A stretch of DNA of 64,000 nucleotides from Pseudomonadota bacterium. Its GTDB lineage: Bacteria; Pseudomonadota; Gammaproteobacteria; SURF-13. A program made the position numbers and the translations under genes. Below the pieces are notes generated by a model, which worked only from the letters and a program-made list of their open reading frames with translations, ran no database searches and was not told the DNA's origin. Location of the stretch: NCBI GenBank assembly GCA_027624315.1, contig JAQBXX010000001.1:62203-126202 (forward strand). The letters are read 5' to 3'. Shown piece after piece: positions 5,774 to 45,706 of this stretch. Numbering within the stretch: position 1 is the stretch's first letter; the number at the start of each line of letters is the position of its first letter.

Positions 5774-5799
5774 ATAACCTATAGTTCGCAACGCTAATT

Positions 5800-5896
5800 C
5801 CCTCCCCCTTTATGGGGGAGGGTTAGGGTGGGGGTGTGGTAACCGGCATCATTTCACCCCCATCCCCGCCTTCCCCCATCAAGGGGGAAGAAGTCA
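5800..5896. repeat. GC-rich REP-like repeat family, two adjacent units
   Basis: ccctccccctttatgggggagggttagggtgggggtg followed by cacccccatccccgccttcccccatcaagggggaag. Shares the core GGGGGAGGG..AGGGTGGGGGT with copies at 1476, 6411, 29408 and 16651 (inverted). Confidence 0.7.
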
Positions 5897-6482: not shown

Positions 6483-7013
6483 CTAGCGCTTAAGCGGCTC
6501 CAGCACCCCGTCCAGATTCATCTCCTCGCACAGATTCATGAACTCATCGCGCAGCGCCGCAATGTGCACCGAGGCGGGGATGTTGACCGTCAGGTTGAGC
6601 GCAAACATCGGCGTGGCGGAATGCGCCGAGGTATAGCCGCTGGTGTAGAGGTCTTCGATGTTGATACTGCGCGCGGTGAAAAAGTCCGCCATGCGGTAGA
6701 TGATGCCGGGACGGTCCACGGTGACGATCTCGGCGATGTAAGGCAGCAGCGGAGTCTCGGTGGAGCGCACCTCGGTACGGCGGGCGCTGATCGTGAGCCC
6801 CAGCCGCTCCTGCAACGCGGACAAGCCGCCCTCCACCTTGGCAATCGCACTCCAGTTGCCGGTGATCATGAGCACAGCGGCAAACTCGCTCCCCAGCACC
6901 GTCATGCGGCTGTCGGCGATGGTGCAGCCGCACTCCATCAGCGCCTGCGCCAACTCCTTGAGCAGCCCGGGCCGGTCTTTACCCAAGGCGGAAATAACGA
7001 GCAAGACTTTCAT
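6483..7013 (-). CDS. gcvR: ACT-domain glycine cleavage regulator GcvR-like protein
   Basis: 176 aa with two ACT-like halves. It sits upstream of bcp, as gcvR does in enterobacteria and pseudomonads. Confidence 0.7.
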   Translation of the reverse strand: MKVLLVISALGKDRPGLLKELAQALMECGCTIADSRMTVLGSEFAAVLMITGNWSAIAKVEGGLSALQERLGLTISARRTEVRSTETPLLPYIAEIVTVDRPGIIYRMADFFTARSINIEDLYTSGYTSAHSATPMFALNLTVNIPASVHIAALRDEFMNLCEEMNLDGVLEPLKR

Positions 7014-7186: not shown

Positions 7187-7610
7187 TTACAGCTTACAGA
7201 GAATTGGAGCAGAGCCTTGCGCGGTCAAGCATCCGCTACCGGTTTTAGCCCAAGTCGTAGCGCCGACACCCAAAGTAGGAATCAATATTAAAGTGGATGC
7301 CGCATTAGTGGTGGAGGTTGGCGTTACGGTAATAGTTCCATTTGCGACAGCAATGGACGCTACATGAGTTGTTGCTTGTGTGGCGGGGATGCCATTTGTC
7401 TCAATATCACAGCCTGTAACGGTACCAAGTTCTTGTGCACAGATAGCAACAGCGGTTTTGTATGCGCTTGACACTGCAACCACTTCTGCGAATTTAGCCT
7501 TAAACGTGTAATCTTGGTAAGCTGGAATCGCCACAGCCGCCAGAATACCAATGATGGCGACCACGATCATCAATTCAATCAGGGTAAAGCCTTGTTGCAG
7601 CTTTTTCATA
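7187..7610 (-). CDS. pilA: type IVa pilin (PilA)
   Basis: [34 protein letters not shown] is the class III signal peptide with the N-methylphenylalanine site. A C-terminal Cys...Cys loop is present. The gene is AT-rich relative to its flanks. An AGGAGC Shine-Dalgarno lies 7 nt upstream of the ATG at 7610. Confidence 0.85.
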
Positions 7611-7704
7611 ATGTGCTCCTCAATGTAGGTTAAATTTTTAGCAACCTCGAGCCCGGTCTTGTAGCAGGTGACTACGGACTCGAAGCTTGACGGGCAACTA
7701 CTCA

Positions 7705-7720
7705 GCAGCATTCGTGCCAC
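7705..7720 (-). promoter_or_regulatory. sigma-54 (-24/-12) promoter candidate for pilA
   Basis: The minus strand reads TGGCACgaatgCTGCT, matching TGGCAC-N5-TTGCW, about 95 nt upstream of the pilA ATG. Pilin genes in pseudomonads are typically RpoN/PilR dependent. Confidence 0.5.
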
Positions 7721-8007: not shown

Positions 8008-8160
8008 GGGAAGCTCTGATTTATTCAGAGCTTCCCTGCGGCACACGGATGTGCCGCCATTTCTCAAACACGCAAGTGTTTGAGAAATGAAGAAAAACGA
8101 AAATCGCATTTTCGTTTTTCGTCTCTGAAAATTCCATGGATGGAATTATTCAGAGTTTCC
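8008..8160 (-). repeat. composite multi-hairpin intergenic element, copy A (inverted relative to copies C and D)
   Basis: The reverse complement aligns module by module with 28922-29075 and 31843-31984. The modules are ctctgaataattcc..ggaatt..cagag, gaaaaacgaaaatgcgattttcgtttttc, tttctcaaacacttgcgtgtttgagaaa, gcggcacatccgtgtgccgc and gggaagctctgaataaatcagagcttccc. Confidence 0.8.
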
Positions 8161-8179
8161 TTAGTAAGGGAGAGTCGCC

Positions 8180-8403
8180 ATGGAAAAGTTTAACATCGCC
8201 GAAGCCAAGGCTCATTTTTCCGAGCTGGTGCAGAAGGCCATGCTGGGTAAAGAGGTGATTATCGCCAAGGGTAGCAAGCCCCTGCTCAAGCTGGTTCCAC
8301 TGGCGCCAACACAGCCGCGCAAGCCGGGGTCGGGTAAGGGGCAGGTGCTCCATGTGGCATCTGATTTCGATGCCGCTCTGGAGGATTTTAAGGGCTACAC
8401 CTG

Positions 8404-8404
<1 letters not shown>
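8180..8404 (+). CDS. type II antitoxin (Phd/YefM-like, VapB-type)
   Basis: 74 aa, MEKFNIAEAKAHFSELVQKAMLGKEVIIAKGSKPLLKLVP. Overlaps the downstream PIN toxin start (ATGA). Confidence 0.8.
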
Positions 8405-9838
<1,434 letters not shown>

Positions 9839-24771: not shown

Positions 24772-24934
24772 CAGGCTGTTGAAAAAGTCCGTCCAGGACT
24801 TTTTCAACCACGTAAAGCAAAAAATGTGATTTTTGCTTTACTTCATTTTTCAAACACTTACGTGTTTGAAAAATGGCGGCACATCCATGTACCGCACCGC
24901 AGGCTGTTGCAAAACAGAGTTTTTCAACAGCCTG
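24772..24934 (+). repeat. composite multi-hairpin intergenic element, copy B (variant terminal hairpins)
   Basis: The central modules gtaaagcaaaaaatgtgatttttgctttac, tttttcaaacacttacgtgtttgaaaaa and ggcggcacatccatgtaccgc are conserved with copies A, C and D. The terminal hairpins are replaced by caggctgttgaaaaagtccgtccaggactttttcaacc and caggctgttgcaaaacagagtttttcaacagcctg. Confidence 0.75.
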
Positions 24935-24992: not shown

Positions 24993-25727
24993 TCACCCCG
25001 ACTTCATGCGCCGACGCAGCTCCGCCACATGCCGACGGCTGACTTCGAGCCGTTCTTCAATACCACGTAAACGCACCAGGCTATTGCCCGCAACGTCCCT
25101 CTCCAGCACGCTGATTCTGGCCGCGGCCACCAGCGCATTGCGGTGAATGCGTACAAAGCACTCACCAAACTCCTCCTCCAATGTCTTGAGTGCATCCTCG
25201 ATCAGCACCTCGCCCTCGGGGGTACGCACCGTGACGTATTTCTGGTCGGCCTTGAAATATACGATGTCGGCGACCGGAATGAGCTGGAGTGTGCCGTGCG
25301 CGTGGGCGCTGAGATATCTGCGCGCACGTGCCTCACCACTGTCGCGGCGCACAACGGCAAGCTGCGCCCGGTTCATCATCCGTGTCTTGCTAAGTGCATG
25401 CTCCAGTTGCTCTTTACGGATCGGCTTCAACAAGTAATCCGTGGCGTGCGCCTCGAAGGCGGCGAGCGCATGATCGCCGTAGGCGGTGGTGAAAATCACG
25501 GCGGGCGGCTCGTCCAGCAGGGCGAGATGCAGCGCAGCCTCCAGCCCGTCCAGCTCCGGCATGCGGATGTCCATCAGCACAACCTCCGGCAGCAACACCG
25601 CAGCGCGTGCCAGCGCCTCCTTGCCGTTGGCCGCCTCGCCTACCACCTCGTGGCCGCCAAGTTCGGCGACGAGCCCGCGCAGGCGTTCGCGCGCGAGGGC
25701 TTCGTCATCCACAATCAGAATTTTCAT
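24993..25727 (-). CDS. algR: LytTR-family response regulator AlgR
   Basis: Receiver domain (MKILIVDDE...DIRMPELDG) plus a C-terminal LytTR DNA-binding domain. Conserved algZ-algR-hemC synteny. Confidence 0.85.
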   Translation of the reverse strand: MKILIVDDEALARERLRGLVAELGGHEVVGEAANGKEALARAAVLLPEVVLMDIRMPELDGLEAALHLALLDEPPAVIFTTAYGDHALAAFEAHATDYLLKPIRKEQLEHALSKTRMMNRAQLAVVRRDSGEARARRYLSAHAHGTLQLIPVADIVYFKADQKYVTVRTPEGEVLIEDALKTLEEEFGECFVRIHRNALVAAARISVLERDVAGNSLVRLRGIEERLEVSRRHVAELRRRMKSG

Positions 25728-26830
25728 GCGTCGGACTGCACACAAGGAAAGCGGAGGCGGACACTGTAGCGCCAGCCGTTATGCTCGTCAGCCTCATCGA
25801 TGACAAGTCCGGCTTTCGTACCATAGTAAGCCACCAGACGCTCACGTACGTTGTCCACTGCGATGTGGTTGCTGTGCGGACGAAACAGCGCACCTTGTGG
25901 CGCTACCGGATTGGTGAGTGTAATTTCTATGATGCCGCCCGTATCGCGGCCCTGAATGGCGATCACGCCACCTTCCGCCAGCGGCTCAATGCCGTGATAG
26001 ACGGCGTTCTCCAGTAACGGTTGCAAGGTCAGCACCGGCACCAGCGCATCTTCCGGCACGGCATCCATATCCCACTCCACGCGCAGGCGTTCTCCCAGAC
26101 GCAGGTGTTCAATATCCAGGTACTTGCGCACCATGGCGAGTTCCTCGTGCAATGGCACGCGATTGCGCGCATCGGCCAGGCTCGCACGGAACAGGTCGGC
26201 GAGGTTCACCACTGCCGCCTCCGCCAGCTCCGGGCGGCTGCGCGTTAGACTGGCGATGATATTCATGCTGTTGAACAGGAAATGCGGCCGGATGCGCGAC
26301 TGCAGGGCCTGGATGCGTGCGTTGGACTCCGACTCGATGTTGCTCTTCCACTGGTGCTGCACATAAAAATAGCGCAACGCCACCGCGCTGATGATCGCGC
26401 TCACCGCGAGACTGCGCAGCAGAAAATCATAATGCCAGAACGCGGGCAATGGAATACCGACGACGTCACTCTGCAGCAGCCAGTACGCCGCCTCGCTGAC
26501 CAATGCCGTGACCGCAAGTAACAACAGGTAGCTCAGCAGCGCGGCGGCGCGGTTGGGCACGCGGGCAAGCCAGCGGCGGCTGGCGCACAACGCTGCGGCG
26601 CTGGTAAGCGCCACCCACTGCACAAACAGCGAGAGCACGCTGAGATCGGCCCAGCGGTCGCCGCTCTCCAGCGCCCCCAAGGCCAGCACCAGGGCAAGCA
26701 ACTCGGCGATCACCATGAGCGCCAGCACCATGCGCACACCGCAGAAATCGGGCAGAAACAGCGTGTCGCGGGAGGCTGTGGCGTTAATACTGAACTCCTT
26801 AGTAATCTTTCGAATACAGCATATAATAAC
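25724..26830 (-). CDS. algZ: sensor histidine kinase AlgZ/FimS (LytS/YehU-type)
   Basis: N-terminal transmembrane helices plus a His_kinase domain (HFLFNSMN...[13 protein letters not shown]). The 5' end is uncertain: a TAAGGAG Shine-Dalgarno is followed by an in-frame ATT, with no ATG before the conserved N-terminus. The ORF extends to 26974. ATGA overlap with algR. Confidence 0.7.
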
Positions 26831-26857
26831 GCAGCATCCGGCAACAGCGCGCAAAAC

Positions 26858-28249
26858 ATGGCCAAAAACACATCCACTGAAAAGCCCTGGGCAGGCCGCT
26901 TCACCGAACCCACCCAGGCCTTCGTCGAGGCCTTCACCGCCTCCGTCGGCTTCGATCATCGCCTCTACAGGCATGACATCGCGGGCTCACTGGCGCACGC
27001 GCGCATGCTTGCGCACATCGGCGTGCTCAACTCCGCCGAGTGCGAGAAAATCGTGGGCGGGCTGCAGGCGATTGAGCATGCCATTGACCAGGGCAAATTC
27101 GAATGGTCGATAGCGCTGGAAGACGTGCACATGAACATCGAGGCGCGCCTTATCGAGCGCATCGGCGAGGTGGGCAAGAAACTGCACACTGGCCGCTCGC
27201 GCAATGATCAGGTGGCGACCGACATGCGGCTGTATCTGCGTGATGAAATCGACGCGGTACTGGCCGAGATGCGCCGCCTGCAGGGCGCACTGCTCGACGT
27301 AGCCGAGCGCGAAGCGGAAACCATCATGCCCGGCTATACCCATCTGCAAGTCGCGCAGCCGGTCACCTTCGGCCATCACCTGCTCGCCTGGTTTGAAATG
27401 CTGGCGCGCGACGCCGCGCGTCTGCGCGAGTGCCGTGTGCGCGTCAACGTCATGCCGCTCGGCTCGGCGGCGCTTGCCGGTACGAGCTACCCGATTGACC
27501 GCAATTACACGGCCCAACTGCTCGGCTTCGACGCGCCATGCGAAAACTCGCTCGATGCGGTCAGCGACCGCGACTTCATCATCGAATTCGTGAGTGCCGC
27601 TGCGCTGCTCATGACGCACCTGTCGCGCTGCTCCGAAGAGCTGGTACTGTGGTCGTCCACGCAGTTCGGCTTCGTCGATCTGGGTGATGCGTTTTGCACC
27701 GGCTCGTCGATCATGCCGCAAAAAAAGAATCCCGACGTGCCGGAGCTCGTGCGCGGCAAGGCGGGGCGTGTGAACGGCCACCTAGTGGCGCTGCTCACCT
27801 TAATGAAGGCGCAGCCGCTCGCCTACAACAAGGACAATCAGGAGGACAAGGAGCCGCTGTTCGACACCGTGGACACGGTGAAGGGTTCGCTGCACGTATA
27901 CGCCGACATGATTCCCGCCCTGCGCGTCAATCGCGCGGCGATGCTGCACGCCGCGCGCAGCGGCTTCTCCACCGCCACCGATCTTGCGGATTATCTGGTG
28001 CGCAAGGGCGTGGCGTTTCGTGATGCGCACGAAGTCGTGGGCAAGGCGGTGCGTCACTGCATCGACTGCGGCCGCACGCTGGAGCAGCTCACGCTGGAGG
28101 AGTTGCGCGCGCACTCCCCTGTCATCGGCCAGGACGTATTTGCCGTGCTCACGGTGGAGGGCTCCGTCGCGGCGCGCGACCATGTGGGCGGCACCGCGCC
28201 GGCGCAGGTGCGCGCCGCGCTCAAACGCGCGCGCGCCCGTCTGGGCTAG
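26858..28249 (+). CDS. argH: argininosuccinate lyase
   Basis: 463 aa with fumarate-lyase signature [12 protein letters not shown]. Confidence 0.95.
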
Positions 28250-28271
28250 CAACAGCTTCGAGAGACCGCCC

Positions 28272-28910
28272 ATAAAACGTCAACTTTATCTGCTTGCACT
28301 GTCGCTGCTAACGGCCGTTGCTCTGTCGTCCGGAGGATTCGCCGCAGACAAACTCTACAAATAGGTGGACGACAAGGGCGAGGTGCATTACGGCGACAAG
28401 ATCCCGCCGGAATACGCGCAGCAGGGCCACACGGAACTCAACAAGCAGGGCGTCACCGTCAAGACCACCGAGGGCGCCAAAACCGAAGAGCAGCTTGCCG
28501 GGGAAGAGCGCAAACAGCAGGCCATGGCGGATGAAAAACGCCGCGCCGACGAACAGGTCGCGCGCGACAAGGTACTGCTAAACACCTATGCGAGCGAGAC
28601 CGACATCACCCAGACGCGCGACAGAAAGCTTGCGATGATCAATGGCGAGATCACCCTGCACACAAGCTACAGCGAGAACCTGAAAAAACATCTGGCCGGC
28701 CTGGCCAATGAGGCCGCCGCTTTTGAGAACTTGGGCAAACCCCTGCCGGAGAGATTACAAAAGGATATCCGTGAGTCCACGGCGCAGGACGAAAAATACA
28801 CCACCTTCATCAAGACCAAACAGAACGAACAGGACGCTATCAAGCGCCAAGCCGAGGCCGATATACAGCGTTTCCGTGAGCTCAAGGGCGCCACTGGCGC
28901 CAAACCGTAG
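28272..28910 (+). pseudogene. DUF4124 periplasmic protein gene disrupted by a start-codon change and an in-frame amber codon
   Basis: The frame reads (ATA)KRQLYLLALSLLTAVALSSGGFAADKLYK-TAG-VDDKGEVHYGDKIPPEY. DUF4124 proteins have a signal peptide followed by YKWVD. Here the Trp codon is TAG (28362-28364) and the expected ATG is ATA (28272-28274). The downstream ORF 28365..28910 starts only on a GTG with no Shine-Dalgarno. Confidence 0.5.
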
Positions 28911-28921
28911 CGGGTTACTTA

Positions 28922-29075
28922 AGGAAGCTCCGAATAATTCCATCCAGGAATTATTCAGAGCACGAAAAACAAAAATGCGATTTTTGCTTTTCTTCACGTT
29001 TTTCAAATACTTACGTATTTGAAAAATGGCGGCACATCCATGTGCCGCAGGAACCTCTGATTAATCAGAGGTTTT
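28922..29075 (+). repeat. composite multi-hairpin intergenic element, copy C
   Basis: ggaagctccgaataattccatccaggaattattcagagc, acgaaaaacaaaaatgcgatttttgcttttc, tttttcaaatacttacgtatttgaaaaa, gcggcacatccatgtgccgc, aggaacctctgattaatcagaggtttttt. Lies between two convergent gene ends. The last module resembles an intrinsic terminator. Confidence 0.8.
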
Positions 29076-29078
29076 TTA

Positions 29079-29354
29079 TTATTTCCGGTCCCCGGTCTCG
29101 AGTTCGGCCCCCACCACCCTGCCGCGCGCATCGAGCCGCACACGGAAGCGCCCCCAACAGGCGACGCGCCCGGCCTCACAGCCGGAACCTTCCATGATGA
29201 CCTCGTCGAATCTCACTGCACACAGCGCCTGCTCGTCGTCCTCCTCCAGCAACTCAATACGCATACTGGCCGGATCCGGCCAGCCGTTTTGCGTGCACAG
29301 TTGTGCAAGCCCGGAGGAAGCGGAAAAAAATTCCTGCAAACTGGTTTGATCCAT
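29079..29354 (-). CDS. hypothetical protein (91 aa)
   Basis: An ORF with typical GC3 bias and acidic stretches. No family recognised from sequence alone. Confidence 0.45.
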   Translation of the reverse strand: MDQTSLQEFFSASSGLAQLCTQNGWPDPASMRIELLEEDDEQALCAVRFDEVIMEGSGCEAGRVACWGRFRVRLDARGRVVGAELETGDRK

Positions 29355-29407
29355 CGCGCCGTTACGATCAGATTACTTATAAGTCAGTAAGTAAGGTTCC
29401 ACGTCCC

Positions 29408-29462
29408 GCTACGTCTCCGCCCCCTGTTTAGGGGGCGGGATAGGGTGGGGGTAGAGTAAACA
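29408..29462. repeat. GC-rich REP-like repeat, near-identical to the copy at 1476-1530
   Basis: ctccgccccctgtttagggggcgggatagggtgggggtagagtaaac against 1476-1530 tccccgccccttgtttagggggcgggacagggtgggggtagagtaagg. Confidence 0.75.
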
Positions 29463-29470
29463 CGGTATTA

Positions 29471-31789
<2,319 letters not shown>

Positions 31790-31842
31790 TTCTTGTTCTC
31801 TTTGCTTTCCCTTGCTACTCGTTACTTATTTACGGAAGCTCT

Positions 31843-31984
31843 GAATAATTCCATCCAGGAATTATCAGAGCACGAAAAGCAAAAATGTGATTTTTTCTTT
31901 TCTTCATTTTTCAAATACTTACGTATTTGAAAAATGGCGCTACACCCCTGTAGCGCAGGAACCTCTGACACATCAGAGGTTCCT
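31843..31984 (+). repeat. composite multi-hairpin intergenic element, copy D
   Basis: About 90% identical to copy C. The gcgctacacccctgtagcgc module shows compensatory changes relative to gcggcacatccatgtgccgc. The last hairpin abuts the dut stop codon. The element lies 54 bp upstream of the algC start. Confidence 0.8.
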
Positions 31985-32439
31985 TACTGTCTTCCCGAAT
32001 GCCCGAAACCGCCGGCGCCGCGCTGAGTCTCGTCAAACGACTCGACGATATCAAAGCGTGCGCGTACTACGGGCACAAACACCATCTGCGCGATGCGTTC
32101 ACCCGCGTTGACGGTGAAAGGCTCGCTGCTCCGGTTCCAGCACGAGACCAGCACCTGGCCCTGATAATCCGAGTCGATCAGGCCGACCAGGTTGCCGAGC
32201 ACGATGCCGTGCTTGTGGCCGAGACCGGAGCGCGGCAACAGCACCGCCGCGAGCGCGGCGTCGGCGATGTGCATCGCCATGCCGGTCGGGATCAGGTGGG
32301 TCTCGCCCGGCTTGATGAGCAGCGGGCTGTCGAGACACGCGCGCAAGTCGATGCCTGCGGAGCCGTCCGTGGCGTACGCGGGCAGCGGAAATTCATTGCC
32401 GAGGCGCGCATCAAGAATCTTGAGTTGTATGCTTTGCAT
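31984..32439 (-). CDS. dut: dUTP diphosphatase
   Basis: [34 protein letters not shown]... Start at the ATG at 32439; the ORF begins at 32496. Confidence 0.9.
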
Positions 32440-37372: not shown

Positions 37373-37735
37373 ATGTCTCGACACAAAACAATCCCGATTG
37401 TCGATCTCTTCGCGGGCCCGGGCGGGCTTGGGGAAGGATTTTCTGCCTTCACTACAGCCCATGACCAACATCCTTTCAGGGTAATGCTTTCGATTGAAAA
37501 GGACGGCGCTGCACACAGGACTCTTCTTCTGAGAACCTTCTTGCGGCAATTCCCCGATAACCGCGTCCCGAAGGATTATTATGAATTTCTCAGGAACTTT
37601 AAAGAACCGGAGAGCAGCAGACTCACCCGTCTCTATGGGAAGTATCCCAAAGAAGCTCAAAGAGCGGCCTGCCAAGCCATGCATGCCGAGCTTGGCGTAA
37701 CCGAACTGGCAACAATCAGACATGAATACTCATAA
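37373..37735 (+). pseudogene. N-terminal fragment (120 aa) of a C5 cytosine-specific DNA methyltransferase
   Basis: IPIVDLFAGPGGLGEGF is motif I (FxGxGG). The following block resembles the C5 methyltransferase region between motifs I and IV, but no PCQ or ENV motif appears and the frame stops at 37735. Low GC. Confidence 0.55.
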
Positions 37736-38510
37736 CTGGACAAGAGAGCAGCTAAAGCTGGCATTCCACCTTTATTGCCAGCTACCGTTTGGAAAGTTAC
37801 ATCACAGAAATCCAGAAATAATTCAGCTTGCAAAGCTAATTGGTCGAACACCATCAGCAGTTTCGATGAAATTAGGGAATTTTTCTAGCCTTGATCCCGC
37901 TATCACAAGTACCGGACGGAGTGGTCTAGGTAATGCCTCTAAAGCCGACCGTGAAATTTGGACTGAATTTCATGAAAATTGGGAGAAACTTGCGATTGAG
38001 TGCGACAGCTTAAGGCGGCAACTCAACGCAGGACTTGAAATACCAGCTACATCCGAATTCAATTTATCAACTGATGAATACCTTGGTGATTTCACTGGTG
38101 AAACTCGCAACGTAATCACAGAGCAACGCATTAAGCAGCAATTTTTCCGCAGGGCAGTGTTGAGTAGCTATCGCGGAAGATGCTGTATGACAGGACTATC
38201 TGAACCAAGATTACTGGTAGCCAGCCATATCGTCCCCTGGAGCGCAGACAGATCGAACCGTTTAAACCCGAGAAATGGCCTATGCTTGTCATCGTTGCAT
38301 GACAAAGCTTTTGACCAAGGACTGATTACGCTGACAGACAACTTCAGAATTATTCTCTCCGATAAACTACGAAGCAAAGACGAGCCCTTTATTAAGCAAG
38401 CGTTTTTTGCGCTAGAAGGACATGCCATAGAATTACCCGAACGTTTCTTGCCCAGCGTAGAATTTGTTGCATATCATCGTCAAGAGGTGTTTCTAGATAA
38501 CCGCGCATAA
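37722..38510 (+). CDS. HNH-family (HNH_2-like) putative restriction endonuclease
   Basis: 262 aa with C-terminal motif ASHIVPWSADRSNRLNPRNGLCLSSLHDKAFDQGLIT, the His-Asn-His beta-beta-alpha metal finger. AT-rich. Overlaps the methyltransferase fragment by 14 nt. Confidence 0.7.
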   Translation: MNTHNWTREQLKLAFHLYCQLPFGKLHHRNPEIIQLAKLIGRTPSAVSMKLGNFSSLDPAITSTGRSGLGNASKADREIWTEFHENWEKLAIECDSLRRQLNAGLEIPATSEFNLSTDEYLGDFTGETRNVITEQRIKQQFFRRAVLSSYRGRCCMTGLSEPRLLVASHIVPWSADRSNRLNPRNGLCLSSLHDKAFDQGLITLTDNFRIILSDKLRSKDEPFIKQAFFALEGHAIELPERFLPSVEFVAYHRQEVFLDNRA

Positions 38511-38516
38511 AAGCAT

Positions 38517-38927
38517 CTAAAGCCAACTTATCTTTACCTCGTTCTCGACTTGCTTAAACTCTTTATCGCCAGTGACCAATTCCGCTTTCCGATCCTTAGC
38601 CAAAGCTGCCGCAAAGCAATCCGCGAAGGACATGCGGTTCTTGGCTTTGAATGTTCCGGCAATACGCGCCAACTTCCAGTCAACATCCACAAATTCTATC
38701 CCAAGCAGCCTCAGCGTATCTATTGCCTTGTCCGCCTCGGTTTCGGACACTTCCCAGGCGATTATGTACCAAACCTCTCCGGCGTTCACGACCGACATGA
38801 GCAGCGGTATCCCGTGCTCATGGGCATCACCGATCAGGCTCGCCACTTTCGGGCCAGTGCTTTCGTCCTCCAGATAGGCCAGCACCGCCCACGAATCAAG
38901 CACGATAGCTTTCGGCCGGCGGGCCAT
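38517..38927 (-). CDS. vapC: PIN-domain toxin VapC (second copy)
   Basis: 136 aa, IVLDSWAVLAYLEDE...LLMSVVNAGE..., PIN fold. Confidence 0.8.
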   Translation of the reverse strand: MARRPKAIVLDSWAVLAYLEDESTGPKVASLIGDAHEHGIPLLMSVVNAGEVWYIIAWEVSETEADKAIDTLRLLGIEFVDVDWKLARIAGTFKAKNRMSFADCFAAALAKDRKAELVTGDKEFKQVENEVKISWL

Positions 38928-39157
38928 TAGATATCCCTCTCACGCTTCTTTTCCGCCGCCAGCGCCTTGAGCAGCCCCTTGCCCTTGTATTTTCCCCGCA
39001 TGCTCTGGATGTATTCAGGGGTAATCGGGGTGAGGACAATCTTGTGCGTCTGTTCGTCCACATCAATCTGGATTCTTGTCCCTTCCTTCATTCCAAGCCT
39101 TCTCCGCACCTTTGACGGGATCACGATCTGTCCCTTGGCGGTCAGGTAGGTTTCCAT
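38927..39157 (-). CDS. vapB: AbrB/MazE/SpoVT-family antitoxin (VapB)
   Basis: 76 aa, KGQIVIPSKVRRRLGMKEGTRIQID, a swapped-hairpin beta-barrel motif. Its stop overlaps the vapC start. Confidence 0.8.
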   Translation of the reverse strand: METYLTAKGQIVIPSKVRRRLGMKEGTRIQIDVDEQTHKIVLTPITPEYIQSMRGKYKGKGLLKALAAEKKRERDI

Positions 39158-45125: not shown

Positions 45126-45392
45126 TTACGCCGCCTTTCTGCGCTTCATCACTTGATCCAGATCGTAGGTGGCCTGAAGGTTCATCCAAACCTTGGCGGA
45201 TGTACCTAGTGCCTTGGCCAAATCCAGCGCCGCCTCTGCAGTAATGCCTCTTTTGCCCTTGATTAACTCATTCAATCGCGCACGCGTCCACCCCAGTTTC
45301 TTCGCAAATGCGGCCTGGGTGATGTCGTCTGGAATGAGGAACTCCTCCAGAAGAATCTCTCCCGGATGAAACGGATTTCTGGGCTGACGCAT
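45126..45392 (-). CDS. higA: HigA-family antitoxin (XRE HTH)
   Basis: MRQPRNPFHPGEILLEEFL... with a helix-turn-helix (QAAFAKKLGWTRARLNELIKG). The ORF could start at 45419. Confidence 0.75.
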   Translation of the reverse strand: MRQPRNPFHPGEILLEEFLIPDDITQAAFAKKLGWTRARLNELIKGKRGITAEAALDLAKALGTSAKVWMNLQATYDLDQVMKRRKAA

Positions 45393-45415
45393 GATATTTA
45401 CCTCTTCATCCAGCT

Positions 45416-45706
45416 TCAATGATAATCAACAACCTGTACATCACTGGCATTACCGTCCTGCCACCTGAAAACTACCCGCCACTGGCTATTGATGCGAATA
45501 GAGTGGTAGCCCTTCCATTTGCCTTTTAATGCCTCAAGCCGGTTGCCGGGCGGAACGCGCAAATCCAACAACTCAGCGGCATCATGCAGATAGAGCAGTT
45601 TTCTGCGCGCCGCGCGCGTTACATCGGGCGGAAATGACAGCATATCCTTACTGCGCCGGTCGAGAAACAGATCCTGTGCCAGCTTATTTCCAAAGCCCAA
45701 AATCAT
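45416..45706 (-). CDS. higB: HigB-like toxin (RelE/ParE superfamily, plasmid-maintenance killer)
   Basis: 96 aa, ...LEALKGKWKGYHSIRINSQWRVVFRW, toxin-first higBA order. The palindrome tatcgaaactcgata at 45711-45725 upstream is a likely operator. Confidence 0.75.
   Translation of the reverse strand: MILGFGNKLAQDLFLDRRSKDMLSFPPDVTRAARRKLLYLHDAAELLDLRVPPGNRLEALKGKWKGYHSIRINSQWRVVFRWQDGNASDVQVVDYH

Follow-up and report, generated by a model that had tools for sequence, protein, structure and literature searches.

A probable recent pseudogene of a conserved DUF4124 gene in an uncultured gammaproteobacterium, with start codon and invariant tryptophan lost to G>A changes

Background

Proteins of the DUF4124 family (Pfam PF13511) combine a signal peptide with a small beta domain marked by the motif [YF]-[KR]-W-x-D-x-x-G; to our knowledge, no function is known for the family. 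Only one characterised DUF4124 protein was found in the literature, TfpC (NGO0783) from Neisseria gonorrhoeae, a type IV pilus stabilising factor with a DUF4124 domain (PMC7593972). Its authors warned against taking most DUF4124 proteins for orthologues (PMC7593972). Ordinary bacterial point-mutation pseudogenes arise by start loss or nonsense mutation and are often mis-called as shorter coding sequences.

Here, a DUF4124 gene just downstream of argH was analysed within a stretch of 64,000 nucleotides (the window) from an uncultured sulfur-type gammaproteobacterium, an organism known from one sample and a single genome. A sequence-only reading of this DNA had proposed that the gene carries two lesions, and had offered a recent pseudogene, a sequencing or assembly error, and amber readthrough as explanations. 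The comparisons given below make it very likely that the locus is a real, recent two-hit null allele (pseudogene) of a conserved gene.

Sequences and comparisons

The gene product was repaired at both lesions (I1 to M, stop to W), and the resulting 212-aa sequence was searched against a protein collection of 5.8 billion clusters, which returned 161 matches. With one genome scanned per GTDB species, 80 related loci were obtained, all in MAGs that carry the labels Thiogranum, Thiohalobacter, Thiohalobacteraceae, Sulfuriflexus, Steroidobacteraceae, Woeseiaceae or simply Gammaproteobacteria. A site was counted as a singleton change when six sequences agreed and a seventh differed. AlphaFold2 was used with a 60-sequence alignment to model P0002, the closest intact orthologue (mean pLDDT 88.9).

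Reading frame and lesions

The argH gene ends in TAG at 28247-28249, 22 bp upstream of the DUF4124 gene. A Shine-Dalgarno-like GAGAGA was read in the sequence at 28260-28265 (+), 6 nt 5' of an ATA at 28272-28274 (+), and GAGAGACC also precedes the ATG in orthologue L007, where the GAGAGA is identical. Translation of 28251-28910 placed this ATA and a TAG at 28362-28364 (+; codon 31) in one frame (IKRQLYLLALSLLTAVALSSGGFAADKLYK*VDDKGEVHYGDKIPPEY...) that runs to a stop at 28908-28910, so the two lesions lie where the sequence-only reading had located them. The altered bases, at 28274 and 28363, are 89 bp apart.

A signal-peptide coding remnant (IKRQLYLLALSLLTAVALSSGGFA; 28272-28343, +) begins at the ATA and has no usable start codon. 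Judged by eye, KRQLYLLALSLLTAVALSSGGFA followed by AD has the n/h/c layout of a signal peptide, with a basic n-region, a hydrophobic core and a small-residue GFA-A site, and the remnant aligns with the N-termini of the orthologues. The DUF4124 domain coding region (28320-28499, +; residues 17-76 of the repaired protein; PF13511) is broken by the TAG. A residual ORF of 181 codons, from GTG to TAG (28365-28910, +), encodes what remains of the DUF4124 domain together with a coiled-coil region of three helices; it is the only ORF that a mechanical ORF list gave for the locus, and it was deposited as MDA1106854.1, "hypothetical protein O2845_00410" of Proteobacteria bacterium (a PGAP call).

The 30 codons 5' of the TAG are identical to those of P0002 at 26 of 30 positions, which marks them as the remains of a real coding sequence rather than a frame that arose by chance. 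Neither the sequence nor the ORF list contains an in-frame ATG, GTG or TTG between 28364 and an ATG inside argH, roughly 30 codons 5' of 28272 (coordinate estimated). An alternative upstream start was rejected, given that this argH-internal ATG is the sole in-frame one and that its frame would still be ended by the TAG.

The stop codon of argH has itself moved. It arose by AAG>TAG at 28247-28249, and the ancestral TAG two codons downstream is now CAG (28247-28255), which leaves the window ArgH two residues shorter than in L005 and L007; the shift is probably neutral.

Intact relatives

The best match in the protein search (P0001) was the window's own 181-aa ORF. The matches that followed were intact proteins of 205-212 aa with 58-82% identity, nearly all of them with PF13511; the nearest had an E value of 4e-100 and 82% identity over 97% of the query, and P0002-P0015 showed 58-82% amino-acid identity over their full length. 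No intact allele more than 82% identical was present in the 5.8-billion-cluster collection.

Every one of 21 aligned orthologous proteins starts at the codon aligned with the ATA and carries W at the position of the TAG. This tryptophan (W31) was found in 60/60 homologues and is one of only five invariant columns. In the orthologue DNA, the start codon aligned to the ATA is ATG in L005, L007, L008 and L011 and GTG in L003 and L009, and the Trp codon is TGG in L003, L004, L005 and L007. At the start site, L005 and L007 read ...CCCATGAAACGTCAA... where the window reads ...CCCATAAAACGTCAA...; at the Trp site, L003, L005 and L007 read CTCTACAAATGGGTGGAC where the window reads CTCTACAAATAGGTGGAC. 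Given ATG and TGG in the orthologues, both lesions (ATG>ATA and TGG>TAG) are G>A changes on the + strand, and the ancestral codons assumed by the earlier reading are borne out by L003, L005 and L007. That reading had also named orthologues starting downstream without the signal peptide as evidence that would count against it; every orthologue examined has the signal peptide.

At least 79 of the 80 related loci are intact, with the Trp and a signal-peptide-like N-terminus within one uninterrupted ORF. The window copy was the sole disrupted one seen among the relatives examined, and a short form like the 181-aa ORF was absent from about 100 relatives. No paralogue able to compensate was found in the window.

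Family membership and predicted structure

The repaired product matched PF13511 over residues 17-76 with an E value of 9e-10 and 39.1 bits. The gathering threshold of this family is 22 bits, and it was passed only with both lesions repaired; the 181-aa ORF as encoded gave no Pfam match. The orthologue protein and DNA alignments bear out the identity first proposed for the gene, a putative signal peptide followed by DUF4124. No NCBIfam match was obtained for the gene product. Codon 31, which in intact relatives specifies the invariant Trp of the [YF][KR]W motif (beta-strand 1), is TAG, and the locus is therefore classed as an inactivated descendant of the DUF4124 family and not as a functional member.

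In the P0002 model, a low-confidence signal-peptide helix (residues 3-17) and a disordered linker are followed by a four-stranded beta domain at residues 28-67 (strands 28-32, 38-41, 52-56 and 62-67), with W31 in the first strand, and by three long helices (72-105, 109-153 and 160-205) with pLDDT >95. No relative in the PDB was found by sequence or by fold, where only generic coiled coils were matched. The intact protein would be a periplasmic protein of about 210 aa, composed of a Sec signal peptide, the small DUF4124 beta domain and a three-helix coiled coil.

Support for the lesions in three assemblies

The exact 181-aa product was also found on ENA ERZ23495043 (MEHR18-1_SAMN03444961 scaffold_3538, 31.9 kb) and on a Logan contig from SRR2027830. 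The ENA stretch (L001) is identical to the window at 6546/6546 bp, including both A's, and the Logan contig (L002) at 1190/1190 bp (window 27839-29028), including the ATA and the TAG. All three assemblies that hold both A's (NCBI MAG, ENA and Logan) appear to derive from one sample and are independent only at the assembler level, and their agreement makes assembler error unlikely. The argH, histidine kinase, LytTR response regulator, argB and algC genes are full length relative to their orthologues; with five neighbours free of disabling changes, the consensus is not generally error-ridden. The exact ArgH and ArgB sequences had no occurrence outside the same sample, and a literature search turned up no paper naming SRR2027830, SAMN03444961 or MEHR18.

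These data bear on the possibility that the real gene is intact and that the A's came from a damaged or amplified template, or from low local coverage, and were then propagated by three assemblers. Cytosine deamination in the template is read as G>A. Both lesions bear this signature of opposite-strand deamination, no other conserved position is altered in what is elsewhere a pristine gene, and the shared sample means that a template fault could reach all three assemblies. Against this stand the base-for-base agreement of three pipelines across 1.2-6.5 kb, a source contig of 129 kb, which suggests adequate coverage, the undamaged state of the five conserved neighbours, and the fact that G>A is the commonest change on the lineage branch in functional genes (85/303 across 6.5 kb). 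We therefore regard an artefact as decidedly improbable. The error option of the sequence-only reading is disfavoured by the three identical assemblies, with the proviso that these share one sample.

Age of inactivation and mutation pattern

Apart from the two lesions, the gene shows no sign of further decay. Thirty alignment columns are at least 80% conserved in 60 intact homologues; the gene retains 28 of them, all but M1 and W31. No frameshift was found in the gene, and it differs in length from close orthologues only by a 9-bp stretch that lies in frame within the variable C-terminal tail. The window sequence has 6 synonymous and 8 nonsynonymous singletons with both lesions counted, and the four most informative intact relatives have 6/5, 12/14, 6/7 and 9/13 (synonymous/nonsynonymous). 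The window pattern resembles that of the intact relatives and so gives no sign of relaxed constraint. Since the rest of the gene is undamaged and shows no nonsynonymous excess, the comparison points to an inactivation that would be recent relative to the divergence of about 15% (nucleotide) from the nearest known relatives. A long-standing pseudogene was rejected, as frameshifts are lacking, the other conserved residues are kept and the synonymous/nonsynonymous pattern is that of intact relatives. Among the explanations first offered, the recent pseudogene is accordingly the one best supported, with 28/30 conserved columns kept and no nonsynonymous excess on its own branch.

Across window positions 25365-32000, functional genes included, comparison with L003 and L005 assigned 150 GC>AT and 57 AT>GC changes to the window lineage. 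The corresponding ratios were 130:125 on the L005 branch and 120:72 on the L003 branch, which suggests a shifted mutation or selection balance in the window lineage. As the commonest change across the region, G>A belongs to its normal mutational bias and is not a local anomaly. Local G>A hypermutation (e.g. by a deaminase) was rejected given the general GC>AT bias of 150:57 across 6.5 kb; moreover, with closer orthologues added, the 5' part of the gene held no G>A singletons other than the lesions. Their minus-strand contexts differ (TCA vs CCA), so no single deaminase motif fits both.

No more than about 4-5% of random substitutions would abolish a start codon or introduce a stop, and roughly 4% would introduce a stop. 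Under pure neutrality, a second knockout hit with no other decay is therefore somewhat unexpected, which gives some scope to selection, to one clustered mutational event or to an artefact. The branch carries about 12 further changes, and if the start was lost first, the chance of an extra nonsense hit by drift was estimated at roughly 20-40%, which is not improbable.

Consequences for expression

AUA initiates at about 1-2% of AUG in Escherichia coli (bioRxiv 10.1101/063800), and by analogy ATG>ATA would be a severe knock-down. The TAG at codon 31 lies seven residues past the predicted cleavage site between GFA and ADKLYK, and any product stopped there would be a peptide of 30 residues at most. 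In a crude set of 67 ORFs from the window, about 18 end in TAG, argH among them, and ARAGORN found no tRNA gene in the 64-kb window. Since TAG is an ordinary stop here, codon reassignment is disfavoured; it was rejected together with a suppressor tRNA on the frequency of TAG stops and the lack of a tRNA gene in the window. The same observations agree with the earlier judgement that amber readthrough is unlikely. For the residual ORF, no purine-rich Shine-Dalgarno sequence could be read before the GTG at 28365. An ORF of 181 codons with neither a ribosome-binding site, an export signal nor the first beta-strand would not be expected to yield a functional protein, and MDA1106854.1 is a gene-caller remnant.

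The locus might nonetheless still function, either by AUA initiation combined with UAG readthrough or a suppressor tRNA, or through a new role for a cytoplasmic 181-aa coiled-coil protein started at GTG 28365. In favour of this, weak initiation at AUA is possible, the downstream frame of 181 codons is open and conserved, and its GTG ORF was called as a coding sequence by PGAP; an open frame is also what recent inactivation would leave. UAG readthrough is typically sub-percent, and multiplied by 1-2% initiation it would give negligible product. The same codon serves as the stop of argH, 22 bp upstream, and of about a quarter of the window ORFs, and the window has no tRNA gene. The truncated product, for its part, would start at a GTG with no Shine-Dalgarno sequence, would lack both the signal peptide and beta-strand 1 with its invariant Trp, falls below the Pfam threshold, and has no counterpart among the roughly 100 relatives. 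Continued function of either type seems scarcely credible.

For the null allele, the proposed course is that two independent G>A transitions disabled the gene. ATG>ATA would have removed the initiator, with perhaps 1-2% initiation left by analogy with E. coli, and TGG>TAG at codon 31 would have halted the residual translation. Under neutrality, start loss as the first hit is the more probable order. No expression would be expected from such an allele, as judged from its sequence.

Gene neighbourhood and possible selection for loss

The DUF4124 gene is convergent with orf91-argB-algC. The order response regulator-histidine kinase / argH / DUF4124 / orf91-argB-algC-dut was also found in L003, L005 and L011. 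Across the 80 loci, the gene is convergent with argB-algC in 41, and an upstream argH with an AlgZ/AlgR-like pair was present in only 6, all in the closest clade. Because the neighbourhood is patchy, gene context provides no firm functional link, and no consistent link to pili was seen in the neighbourhoods of the 80 loci.

The neighbouring orf91 (29079-29354, -) is a conserved 91-aa ORF that separates the DUF4124 gene from argB. Its identity to the versions in close relatives is 87-89%; in relatives it abuts the argB stop at a distance of about 7 bp. It has no Pfam match on record and no NCBIfam match. In the ENA assembly of the same sample, it was shortened to 61 aa by the gene caller.

As a sub-case of the null allele, the inactivation may have been selected, for example if the envelope protein was costly or exploited by phage. 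The route would be a leaky knock-down by ATG>ATA that was later reinforced by the amber codon. Type IV pili are common phage receptors, a type IVa pilin is encoded in the window at 7187-7720, and the characterised DUF4124 protein, TfpC, acts on type IV pili (PMC7593972). Two disabling hits fall within 93 bp while 28/30 conserved columns and the whole downstream frame are intact, and a second hit could add fitness if an AUA start leaks at 1-2%. Set against these points, a single genome was sampled, an extra nonsense hit by drift is not improbable at the estimate given above, the likeness to TfpC is known for the Pfam domain and general architecture alone, and the AlgZ/AlgR link is confined to 6/80 loci. 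Selected loss is thus rather unlikely. If it were true, as positive selection in a natural population for escape from a phage, or from another antagonist, that exploits a DUF4124 or type IV pilus-associated factor, it would be a first ecological hint to the function of the DUF4124 coiled-coil family, a small functional clue for an uncharacterised and widely conserved periplasmic family.

Repeats and other features of the window

Directly after the DUF4124 gene stop, 28911-29078 is an insertion absent from L003, L005 and L007. It belongs to a family of AT-rich intergenic repeats of about 155 bp, with window copies at 28911-29078 (+), 31826-31981 (+), 8011-8167 (-) and, in part, 24781-24896 (+), and with other copies at L018:2089-2243 and L014:313-465. 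The repeat is bounded by inverted ends TTAAGGAA...TTCCTTAA (also given as TTAAGGAANCTCTGA...TCAGAGNTTCCTTAA) and folds as five consecutive hairpins, with 13 base pairs showing compensatory changes among only six copies. Its core was found in 92 metagenome stretches (77 unique full copies with unconserved flanks), and the Logan contig breaks inside it. No Rfam family was found for the repeat; at gathering thresholds none was found in the window, and around the locus there were only chance hairpin matches. In appearance the repeat is a MITE- or BIME-like element or, alternatively, a family of structured RNA not yet described.

A second insertion, of about 120 bp, lies between orf91 and argB (29355-29520), where L003, L005 and L007 have only about 7 bp; its start is common to L008. 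It holds a G-rich repeat of about 54 bp that recurs at 1475-1528 and 5792-5835. A perfect hairpin with 19-bp arms (29473-29515) overlaps the argB 3' end and has left the window ArgB with a different and longer C-terminus; the protein has 308 aa, whereas those of L003 and L005 have 295-298 aa and that of L011 has 315 aa.

Elsewhere in the window, lower-GC3 regions contain the type IVa pilin gene (7187-7720, -) and toxin-antitoxin-like pairs, VapBC-like and HigBA-like, at 8180-8790 (+) and 45126-45706 (-). At about 37380-37735 (+), a short ORF segment with a C5 DNA-methyltransferase-like motif I (IVDLFAGPGGLGEGF) ends after about 120 residues and is directly followed by an HNH-type endonuclease-like ORF (37722-38510, +). 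The two may represent a truncated methyltransferase or the remnant of a split restriction-modification system. They sit in a low-GC3 island, where toxin-antitoxin pairs are also present (38517-39157).

Implications for annotation

MDA1106854.1 should be flagged as a pseudogene fragment and not as a 181-aa hypothetical protein. The case illustrates how a point-mutation pseudogene in a MAG is concealed when the gene caller resumes at the following GTG. Beyond annotation hygiene it has little significance, being a feature of an ordinary kind, and the adjoining repeat of about 155 bp may merit separate study more than the pseudogene itself.

Comparison with known systems

Relative to the PF13511 proteins, the repaired window protein has the N-terminal order, a putative signal peptide and then YKWVDxxGxVHY, seen in all homologues examined. 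Unlike those proteins, the gene as encoded has no start codon and no invariant Trp.

Its closest counterparts are an orthologous group of DUF4124 proteins (about 205-215 aa, with a three-helix coiled coil) from Thiogranum-, Thiohalobacter- and Steroidobacteraceae-like Gammaproteobacteria, represented by P0002 and P0007. The window gene fits this group both by full-length similarity and by conserved neighbourhood, and it differs in bearing disabling lesions. The window locus also has two small repeat insertions flanking orf91 that are absent from L003, L005 and L007.

Like TfpC, the proteins of the window family would reside in the envelope; both have a cleavable signal and a DUF4124 domain, and both end in a charged coiled coil. 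This likeness was set by description (shared Pfam domain and architecture), and the window organism does have a type IVa pilin gene. TfpC is unlike the window family in its mature length of 147 residues and its extended proline-rich middle region (PMC7593972).

Measured against intact orthologues, the locus carries the disabling lesions (ATG>ATA and TGG>TAG) by which a pseudogene is recognised. Like ordinary bacterial pseudogenes it was disabled by substitutions, and the gene caller took the longest downstream ORF from an internal GTG. Compared with them, its one mild oddity is that it took two knockout hits with no further decay.
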